From Escherichia coli (GTDB lineage: Bacteria; Pseudomonadota; Gammaproteobacteria; Enterobacterales; Enterobacteriaceae), in NCBI RefSeq assembly GCF_003334385.1, contig NZ_QOWN01000137.1: a stretch of 986 nucleotides of DNA; one strand, written 5' to 3'. Positions within the stretch are counted from its first letter, which is position 1, and every line of letters starts with the position of its first letter. The notes beneath the pieces were generated by a model that did not search any database, was not told the origin of the DNA, and saw only the letters and a list, made by a program, of their open reading frames with translations. The position numbers were made by a program, and so were the translations under genes. Of this stretch, positions 1 to 986 are shown one piece after another.

Positions 1-986
1 GGGCCTGCATCACCTTTGGGACCAGCTGCACCAGCCGGTCCCCGTGGGCCTGCGGGCCCCACTGCACCAGGTGCGCCAGGTTCCCCCCTGTCCCCCTTCG
101 GTCCGGGGACTGCTGCCCGGGTTGCTGCCTCTTCTGCCTTCGTTTTTGCTGCCTGCACTTCTGCCATTACCGCTTTCACAGCCTTTGGGGTTGCCGCTTT
201 TGTTTCATCATCGCTGTTGGTATCGCTGCTCAGCTGTACAACACCTTTCTGTGATGTGCTGGCATCCGGAACACTGGCGACACTGCCTGCGGGACCCGCA
301 GGACCTGCGGGGCCGGTTTCTCCCCGAGGGCCTGCGGGACCTGCCGGACCTGTTGCGCCGGGTTCACCTTTATCCCCTTTCGGGCCGGTTTGCCCTGCCG
401 GACCCTGTGGTCCGGGTGGTCCGGCCTCTCCACGTGGGCCGGTGTCACCTTTCGGCCCCGGCGGTCCGCCCGGGTCACCTTTATCGCCCTTCGGTCCCTG
501 TGGACCTGTTTCTCCCCGTTCTCCCTTTGGCCCCGGCTCACCTTTTGGTCCGACCGCCCCCGTTGCCCCGGCTGGTCCCTGTGCCCCTGTGGCACCCTGT
601 GGACCTGTGTCCCCCTTCTCGCCCGCCGGTCCCCGGGCATTCTCTGCCCGTTTCTTCGCTTCCTCTGCACTCGCCGCCGACGCTTCAGCACGCTTCAGGA
701 TTTCCGCTGCCACCGCTTCCAGCTCTGCAAGCGCTTTCGGGTAATACTGCGCCTCATCCTGTTCCATCAGAAATTTATTCAGCGTTCCCGGCTCAGAATC
801 CGCCTTCACCAGAATGTCACCCACATACGACGGGGCGTACCCTTCCGTGTTCAGCGTCACCCGGTACCACCCCGGCTCCACATCAAAACTGTAACTGCCG
901 GTTTCCCCCGGCTGCCCCTGCGCCACCGTGGTGACTATCACTGTCTCTGTGGTGCGTCGCGCTTTCAGCTCTATGGTGCATCCCGG
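1..986 (-). CDS. stf: Phage side tail fiber protein, Stf-like, with collagen-like Gly-X-Y repeats; internal fragment, partial at both ends (N-terminus lies beyond position 986, C-terminus beyond position 1)
   Basis: Minus-strand frame with codons complementing 984-986 down to 3-5 is open for all 328 codons; I checked it codon by codon. Translation N to C: [328 protein letters not shown]. The N-terminal part resembles, from memory, the N-terminus of phage lambda Stf (CTIQLKARR...SQPGTLNDFL), and the VQLSS...AATPKAVK motif is the phage tail-fibre repeat signature. Codon usage (CTG Leu, AAA Lys, GAA Glu) is enterobacterial. The symbol stf is a family-level assignment, not a specific orthologue. 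No search was run. Confidence 0.92.
3..104 (-). repeat. Collagen-like Gly-X-Y repeat tract 2 (residues 295-328), at least 11 triplets, continuing beyond the window start
   Basis: [34 protein letters not shown] has perfect Gly periodicity from G295 to G328 and is truncated by the window edge. Confidence 0.88.
105..164 (-). other. Region encoding a short Ala/Lys/Glu-rich helical spacer (residues 275-294)
   Basis: [20 protein letters not shown] lies between the fibre repeat and the second collagen tract. Helix prediction is from composition only. Confidence 0.4.
165..254 (-). other. Region encoding a phage tail-fibre repeat motif (Phage_fiber_2-like), residues about 245-274
   Basis: [30 protein letters not shown] closely matches the conserved repeat remembered from lambda Stf and related fibres ([25 protein letters not shown]). 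Identified by eye, not by HMM. Confidence 0.75.
285..632 (-). repeat. Collagen-like Gly-X-Y repeat tract 1 (residues 119-234): 18 plus 20 triplets separated by a single extra Gly
   Basis: Gly occurs at every third residue from G119 to G170, then GG at residues 173-174 (+ coordinates 465-470) shifts the register by one, and periodicity continues from G174 to G234. X and Y positions are rich in Pro, Ala, Lys, Glu, Thr and Gln, typical of bacterial and phage collagen-like sequences. Confidence 0.9.
633..776 (-). other. Region encoding an Ala/Glu/Lys-rich predicted alpha-helical linker, possibly trimeric coiled coil (residues 71-118)
   Basis: Sequence [48 protein letters not shown] has a strongly helix-favouring composition with no Gly or Pro except one Pro. 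Helix or coiled-coil assignment is an inference from composition only. Confidence 0.5.
777..986 (-). other. Region encoding the conserved N-terminal tail-fibre domain (Phage_fiber_N-like, tail-attachment end), residues 1-70 of the window translation
   Basis: Residues [68 protein letters not shown] resemble the lambda Stf N-terminal region as I recall it. Composition is beta-rich and not collagen-like, and this DNA is less GC-biased than the collagen tract. The lambda comparison suggests the true start codon is roughly 15-20 codons beyond position 986. Confidence 0.75.

Follow-up and report, generated by a model that had tools for sequence, protein, structure and literature searches.

The 986-nucleotide stretch of Escherichia coli DNA analysed here (contig NZ_QOWN01000137.1 of RefSeq assembly GCF_003334385.1; the window below means this whole stretch) carries its gene on the minus strand, where frame 1 of the reverse complement is free of stops over all 328 codons. 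In E. coli strain 2018-166 the window lies inside a 1563-nt gene that encodes a protein of 520 amino acids (WP_096849294.1, annotated as 'prophage tail fiber N-terminal domain-containing protein'); it covers residues 18-345 of this protein, window residue 1 being full-length residue 18. The same DNA occurs with 100% identity in chromosomal prophages of several E. coli strains and with 99.9% identity in the PhiR12 phages. Taken as a whole, the observations are best explained if the window is an internal part of the gene that encodes the side tail fibre of a lambda-like E. coli prophage, at the stf position and of the EPclC class, in which collagen has replaced the Ala/Ser-rich coil of lambda Stf and a Phage_fiber_2 (Pf2) repeat would form a trimeric node together with the helix that follows it (helix 2). 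We put the probability of this reading at about 85%.

The location of the gene, just downstream of J in a lambda-like tail module, is that of a lambda Stf-type fibre. In NZ_CP075632 the order is minor tail protein L, a K-like C40 peptidase, the tail assembly protein I, the tail tip protein J, the fibre, a DUF4376 protein and Eib. The order in P-EibA is J-lom-fibre, with the fibre gene named 'ORF-401-like' after the lambda stf fragment, and in PhiR12_1, whose recorded host is E. coli K-12 MG1655, it is K-I-J-fibre. Tail-fibre families of PHROG match the protein with an E-value of 3.6e-84. Read from the N-terminus of the protein, the window holds the following features:

765-986, minus strand: tail-attachment (collar) part of the PF08400 N-terminal domain (N-domain), window residues 1-74, full-length residues 18-91; the window lacks the first 17 residues
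633-743, minus strand: helix 1, a short heptad-patterned segment rich in Ala (full-length residues 99-135) that stops exactly where collagen tract 1 starts
279-632, minus strand: collagen-like tract 1, 39 Gly-X-Y triplets, 118 residues (full-length residues 136-253)
456-479, minus strand: one-residue interruption of tract 1, read directly as GDPGGPPG (window residues 170-177)
135-260, minus strand: single Pf2 repeat, PF03406 (window residues 243-284, full-length residues about 258-301)
108-188, minus strand: helix 2, an Ala-rich heptad helix running from the C-terminal half of Pf2 to ...AAVPG (full-length residues about 283-310)
3-104, minus strand: beginning of collagen-like tract 2, which has 39 triplets in the full-length protein (residues 312-428), 12 of them inside the window

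Both non-repetitive domains are recognized by profile hidden Markov models (HMMs). PF08400 matches residues 2-117 of the fragment (E 8.7e-32) and, in the full protein, the whole of the model (positions 1-134 of 134, E 2.4e-42); the lambda Stf collar structure (PDB 9E7M, residues 1-91) matches the N-domain with an E-value of 2e-30. PF03406 is likewise matched over the full model (positions 1-42 of 42), with E-values of 4.7e-16 for the fragment and 8.7e-16 for the full protein. In tract 1, glycine occupies every third position over window residues 119-175 (19 triplets) and 177-236 (20 triplets), with a one-residue break between the two runs, and in tract 2 over residues 295-328 (12 triplets), where the window end cuts it. 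The collagen family PF01391 matches residues 294-328 of the fragment (E 4.9e-5) and, in the full protein, both halves of tract 1 (E 3e-8 and 7e-8), while collagen chains in the PDB align to the protein with E-values down to 7.5e-76. The tracts consist of glycine (a fraction of 0.33-0.34), proline (0.20-0.21) and charged residues (0.17-0.19). HMM E-values of this order, together with 39 uninterrupted triplets, cannot be chance. The two helices each keep an unbroken a/d heptad register, with Ala, Val, Ile, Leu or Met at 82% of the core positions in helix 1 and at 88% in helix 2; helix 1 falls within the PF08400 model (to 134), and its alignment partner in lambda is the beginning of the coiled coil.

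The first-pass annotation, made from the window alone, had reported a tail-fibre repeat at 165-254 between two collagen-like tracts, in the order attachment domain, helix, collagen, repeat, helix, collagen. Its span corresponds to window residues 245-274 and takes in 30 of the 42 residues of the PF03406 match, and the order that it gave agrees with Pfam, with the heptad registers and with the Gly-X-Y runs. The HMM search that it proposed as a check detects both the N-terminal domain (PF08400) and the repeat (PF03406). Three refinements can be added: the repeat lies on the minus strand, its full extent is slightly longer (nt 135-260), and the second collagen tract continues past the end of the window. 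Beyond the window, the C-terminal 92 residues of the full protein have a weak match to phrog_17472 only; Pfam assigns no family to this domain and does not find PF06820 in the protein.

The nature of the shaft becomes apparent from the comparison with lambda. For this, Ur-lambda Stf (774 aa) was rebuilt from J02459 by joining orf-401 and orf-314 over the known frameshift. In it, Pfam places PF08400 at residues 1-134 and PF03406 once, at 358-396; a Collar domain and His-rich Phage_fiber repeats come after this repeat. The first-pass annotation had stated that the repeat of lambda Stf follows a long Ala/Ser-rich region, which is the arrangement seen in the rebuilt protein (Ala/Ser-rich residues about 130-354). 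By BLASTP, the collagen-like protein aligns to lambda Stf in two regions and is confined to them: the N-terminal end (residues 1-129, 53% identity, E 8e-38) and the repeat (251-293 against lambda 348-390, 63% identity, E 2e-11). Between these anchors lambda has about 220 Ala/Ser-rich residues, whereas this protein has a collagen tract of 120 aa, so that collagen occupies the slot of the Ala/Ser coil and the earlier proposal of a central shaft built from collagen-like modules holds. K-12 StfR has about 330 Ala/Ser-rich residues before its repeat at 460-496, and no Gly-X-Y run was found in the Ala/Ser stretch of either lambda Stf or StfR. Judged by these alignments, the Ala/Ser coiled-coil shaft of lambda Stf and StfR is replaced by collagen in this protein, with both flanking conserved elements kept. 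At the DNA level, blastn of the gene finds no match to lambda or to StfR.

Lambda Stf and StfR of the K-12 Rac prophage thus share with this protein the PF08400 collar domain, the single Pf2 repeat and the gene position after J and lom. They differ in their shaft, a coil of 220-330 Ala/Ser-rich residues without Gly-X-Y, and in their distal part, where a collar domain and T4 gp37-type His-rich Phage_fiber repeats are followed by the gene of the Tfa chaperone; peculiar to the present protein are the collagen on either side of Pf2 and an unrelated small C-terminal domain. In Ur-lambda, the collar domain is present in 12 copies (four trimers) that wrap the gpV/gpM junction of tail tube and tip, and it is followed by a flexible linker and then by a trimeric rod (PMC12617516). 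The hinge of that fibre has been assigned to residues 394-422 (PMC12617516), and it starts where the Pf2 repeat stops in Pfam (396). A trimeric virion fibre that speeds adsorption has been demonstrated for Ur-lambda only (PMC12617516).

Collagen-like proteins of E. coli prophages have been grouped into classes EPclA to EPclD (Ghosh et al., 2012, PLoS One 7:e37872, PMC3368898). The class EPclC comprises proteins with varied C-termini that are not homologous to PfC (PF06820), and its members usually lack the PCoil region (Ghosh et al., 2012). The present protein has PfN at 1-134, Col at 136-253, Pf2 and Col at 312-428, has no PF06820 and carries the GxPGGPxG interruption that was described in the same study (Ghosh et al., 2012); between PfN and collagen 1 there is a 37-residue helix only and no long PCoil. 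It therefore shows all the sequence features of EPclC, of which P-EibA ORF-401 and ECED1_2081 of E. coli ED1a have the same plan of PfN, Col, Pf2, Col and a C-terminus other than PfC, without a long PCoil. Published lengths are 479 aa with collagens of 117 and 75 residues for P-EibA ORF-401 and 520 aa with collagens of 118 and 117 residues for ECED1_2081 (Table 3 in Ghosh et al., 2012). The latter equals the present protein in total length and in both collagen lengths and may be the same protein; an exact-sequence cluster look-up of the 520-aa protein returned no entry in the collection searched. P-EibA ORF-401 differs in the distal half of collagen 2 and in the C-terminal domain. The EPclB proteins of Shiga toxin (Stx) phages (933W Z1483, Sp5 ECs1228 and phi24B gp61) are also alike in having two collagen tracts split by Pf2 and a short helix, with the first tract interrupted. 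They come from short-tailed phages and have a PCoil of about 109 residues before collagen 1 and a PfC (PF06820) C-terminus, whereas the present protein has the 37-residue helix, no PF06820 and a lambda-type long-tail module around its gene. The architecture, the relation of PfN and Pf2 to lambda Stf and the attribution of modular architectures to prophage recombination were all published earlier (Ghosh et al., 2012, where Haggard-Ljungquist 1992 is cited for tail-fibre gene mosaicism), and the present analysis is a confirmation and annotation rather than a discovery.

Modular replacement of the shaft between related fibres, which the first-pass annotation had suggested, is supported by mosaic breakpoints in the DNA of the relatives. 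In gene coordinates, the collagen tracts lie at nt 406-759 and 934-1284. P-EibA ORF-401 is the same protein up to residue 343, beyond which collagen 2 is shorter and the C-terminal domain is another one; its DNA is 99% identical over gene nt 1-1027 and diverges inside collagen 2. PhiR5_2 shows the reverse arrangement, in which a different N-domain, a coil of about 110 Ala/Ser/Glu-rich residues and a longer collagen 1 precede the same Pf2, helix, collagen 2 and C-domain, and its DNA match (94.9% identity, gene nt 532-1563) starts inside collagen 1. The domain order of PhiR5_2 is comparable to that of EPclB, from which it differs by an N-terminal domain of its own. Phage 1720a-02 has the same N-domain and helix and then a short collagen that ends in ...GEPGGP and is followed directly by Pf2. 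This first repeat is separated by some 150 residues of globular insert from another Pf2, which has the Ala-rich helix and leads into collagen and a C-domain of a further kind, and the DNA is 83.8% identical over gene nt 22-576 only. A search of 5,426 complete E. coli genomes found matches in 150, and in 26 of these the match covers at least 80% of the gene. Among the 60 records listed, the partial matches end at gene nt 444-461, 576-599 and 1048-1187, all inside collagen-coding DNA, and none ends in the N-domain, in Pf2 or in the C-domain. By these comparisons, the relatives differ by exchanges whose junctions are inside the collagen-coding repeats. The tracts hold internal DNA repeats of 60-77% identity, which may serve as the substrate for crossovers.

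Several of the E. coli and phage breakpoints fall at gene nt 576-599, adjoining the GDPGGPPG interruption. Together with the collagen of 1720a-02, which ends in ...GEPGGP just before Pf2, this suggests that the interruption may mark an old module junction. A further resemblance is internal to the gene: the start of tract 2 (window 3-106) is 70% identical in DNA to the end of tract 1 (285-388, and also 366-469), at a spacing of 282 nt, and the sequences flanking Pf2 may thus be paralogous duplicates. In P-EibA, ORF-401 (AF151091, positions 1208-2647 of locus L002) reads GEAGPRPQGPAG, with a one-residue deletion relative to the present gene by which the Gly-X-Y register is lost; either an error of sequencing or a genuine second interruption could account for it.

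The distribution of Pf2 places this collagen sandwich in a wider context. A HMMER scan of a 52-residue segment against 1.84 billion representative proteins (cut-off E <= 0.001) returned 1006 proteins with a match. The best 150 of these 1006 were ranked by summed score, hence with a bias to many-copy proteins; among them 146 have at least two copies of Pf2 (up to 12), typically spaced by 44 or 56 residues, eight have a Gly-X-Y run of at least five triplets, and only two (P0133 and P0095) have Pf2 with collagen on both sides, P0133 being a shorter allele (426 aa) of the present protein. The sandwich is therefore a minority context of a widespread fibre repeat. Fibres with Pf2 arrays (Mu protein S and the representatives with 2-12 copies) share with this protein the motif of 37-42 residues, and differ by repeating it in tandem at a spacing of 44 or 56 residues, without collagen. 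Pf2 aligns with residues 109-153 of the Mu fibre protein S (gp49), a segment that is not described in the parts consulted of the paper on the in situ Mu structure (PMC11915804).

The junctions between Pf2 and collagen are conserved in their own right. An Ala-rich extension (VKAxM...AKxKAEEAA...VPGPKG) is common to six of the eight Pf2-to-collagen junctions found, and Pf2 copies that precede non-collagen domains are without it. The collagen-to-Pf2 junctions comprise 0-4 residues and have the conserved pattern GPAGS(V/A)A(S/N)Vx-DA. One representative, P0093 (481 aa), begins MAEKYKTIITNAGAEKMAAA and has a Pf2 and a globular insert ahead of the same Pf2-helix-collagen module, which is thus also found on a fibre backbone without PF08400. 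The N-terminus of P0093 may resemble that of P2 gpH. A tblastn search of phages with a 59-aa Pf2-helix segment recovered query residues 1-27 only, in nine near-identical records, and low-complexity masking of the Ala-rich half is suspected.

What might a fibre of this kind look like? By homology with Ur-lambda, residues 1-91 would form a collar that clamps the fibre to the tail, and the protein would be a homotrimer. The rod would begin with a 37-residue coiled coil of about 5 nm, continue with a collagen triple helix of about 34 nm, if formed, and then pass through the node of Pf2 and helix 2 to another collagen rod, again of about 34 nm, and to a tip domain of 92 residues. Pf2 and helix 2 would constitute a small, non-collagen trimeric node between the two rods. 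In this node the three chains are probably brought into register and the distal triple helix nucleated, and it is probably also the knee of what would be a jointed fibre. A probable role of the C-terminal domain is to bind a receptor on the cell surface and so to speed adsorption, as lambda Stf does with OmpC. Studies of the EPcl proteins provide the closest experimental parallels. EPclA is a trimer with a genuine collagen signature in circular dichroism (as examined by circular dichroism, analytical ultracentrifugation and electron microscopy), is triple-helical and has a hinge at the junction of coiled coil and collagen, and micrographs of EPclB tentatively show three globules (PfN, Pf2 in the middle, PfC) on two stalks (Ghosh et al., 2012, PMC3368898). 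It is by analogy with these proteins and with the Ur-lambda hinge that we propose for Pf2 and helix 2 a probable role as node or knee ahead of the distal collagen.

Several observations weigh against this reading, or against parts of it. An AlphaFold2 model of a linked trimer (three 63-aa copies of the Pf2-helix segment with (GGGGS)6 linkers between them, and an alignment of 31 rows made from diverse Pf2 copies) was poor, with a mean predicted local distance difference test score (pLDDT) of 42 and a predicted template modelling score (pTM) of 0.35. Its sole reproducible element was helix 2, which was helical in all three copies with a pLDDT of 50-62. As the model of Pf2 is uninformative, its roles as node, nucleator and hinge are drawn by analogy. 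The tandem arrays found in most Pf2 proteins suggest a generic shaft block and not a specialised joint. In addition, the gene that follows the fibre does not encode a recognisable lambda Tfa. At the tfa position (L001 7529-8110) there is a 193-aa protein of DUF4376/phrog_1141, a PHROG labelled 'tail fiber protein', for which NCBIfam gave no match; the homologue in PhiR5_2 is annotated as a tail fiber assembly protein, and the 193-aa protein may be a chaperone of the fibre or a component of its distal part. In PhiR12_1 this DUF4376 gene is split by an insertion sequence (transposase and ATP-binding helper; L007 8529-11696), so the fibre may be dispensable, as in lambda PaPa, or unassembled in some carriers.

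The alternatives fall into those that concern Pf2 and those that concern the gene as a whole. It is possible, if on balance unlikely, that Pf2 is a rigid spacer of the shaft with no role in hinging or nucleation, which would not alter the assignment of the protein to the side tail fibres. The predominance of multi-copy, mostly tandem, proteins among the best 150 representatives, and the very name of the Pfam family, 'repeat', speak for such a spacer; it fits less well with the lambda hinge, which begins at the end of the repeat, with the tentative assignment of the middle EPclB globule to Pf2, and with an Ala-rich helix extension that accompanies Pf2 at most junctions where collagen follows and is absent where other domains follow. 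A quite different view, and an improbable one, is that Pf2 is kept mainly as a patch of DNA homology for recombination between fibre genes and has little structural importance. The repeat does sit at module borders in every relative examined, and tail-fibre genes are well known as mosaics. However, between Pf2 copies 24-30 of 37 amino acids (65-81%) are identical as compared with 13-19 of 37 third codon positions (35-51%), a pattern that indicates selection on the protein. This divergence and the missing blastn match to lambda and StfR argue for conservation of Pf2 at the protein level, and the breakpoints, among the matches listed, all fall in collagen-coding DNA and none in Pf2. A purely DNA-level patch was rejected on the grounds of this protein-level conservation and of the blastn result.

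For the gene as a whole, the prospect that it encodes a collagen-like adhesin of the bacterial surface, of the Scl/Lcl/BclA type, inside a prophage, rather than a virion fibre, is very remote. The NCBIfam models SclB, SclA and Lcl match the protein with E-values from 1e-42 to 9e-35, BclA is among the PDB matches, and the next-but-one gene encodes a YadA-like Eib adhesin. The scores of the three models (146, 124 and 120 bits) nevertheless stay far under the curated cut-offs (325, 400 and 500) and the best-scoring stretches are largely Gly-X-Y; on inspection of the translation, the N-terminus (MTVRISGVLKDG) is without a signal peptide and the C-terminus without LPXTG or another anchor motif; and the N-domain is the lambda Stf collar domain, in a gene that directly follows J in a lambda-type tail module. 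The adhesin was rejected, the NCBIfam cut-offs being missed by more than twofold, and the closest homologues are prophage genes adjoining J and not the bacterial surface collagens that would have contradicted the first-pass annotation. Scl1/Scl2, Lcl and BclA do resemble the present protein in their Gly-X-Y tracts rich in proline and charged residues, for which hydroxyproline is not needed; its flanking domains are unrelated to theirs, and inspection found no secretion or anchoring signals. That the real genes are the plus-strand open reading frames (16-744 and 44-934), with a spurious frame on the minus strand, has next to no probability. The plus-strand frames are long (242 and 296 aa), and the first matches phrog_26766 (a 97-position profile) with an E-value of 2.5e-39. 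The minus frame, by contrast, has two non-repetitive Pfam domains (E 1e-16 to 1e-42), matches a solved lambda structure and is the only gene annotated by RefSeq, while the plus-strand frames are the stop-poor antisense of GGN-NNN-NNN codons; phrog_26766 is without known function and the remaining matches are to collagen tracts of tail-fibre families. These frames were rejected as genes and regarded as antisense shadows of the collagen-coding frame. The match of frame 16-744 further suggests that phrog_26766 may itself consist of miscalled antisense frames of collagen-like fibre genes.

The reading preferred here, a collagen-shafted side tail fibre with a Pf2/helix 2 node, can be carried one step further. 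Pf2 and the Ala-rich helix (AKxKAEEAA...VPGPKG) may be a portable N-terminal cassette for registration and nucleation of collagen, while the collagen repeats, especially around GxPGGPxG, may be preferred crossover sites; together they would let lambda-like, 933W-like and what we take to be P2-like phages swap shafts and tips. This joint proposal is a tentative one, more doubtful than not. Side tail fibres influence host adsorption of lambdoid prophages, which include Stx-converting and Eib-carrying ones, and swapping of shafts and tips would thereby affect the spread of virulence genes. Per residue, collagen is also about twice as long as a coiled coil (0.286 as compared with 0.148 nm), and prokaryotic collagens that fold without hydroxyproline are of interest as biomaterials.

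Some minor observations concern sampling and neighbourhood. A scan of both strands of the window against Rfam gave no match, and a literature search on the PhiR12 and PhiR5 phages found nothing relevant. A word-indexed search with the N-domain returned 56 database proteins (P0001-P0056), all of at most 237 aa, and most of those with a source name are labelled 'partial'; proteins of this length offer no basis for a census of domain architectures. The collagen-coding repeats are probably places where draft assemblies break, so that this class of genes would be under-represented as full-length proteins. An Eib gene (YadA-like, immunoglobulin-binding; phrog_9547, E 2e-167) lies two genes past the fibre, at 8906-10231 of locus L001 and, in P-EibA, at 3918-5096 of locus L002, which places the fibre in an Eib-carrying lambdoid prophage, as in P-EibA.

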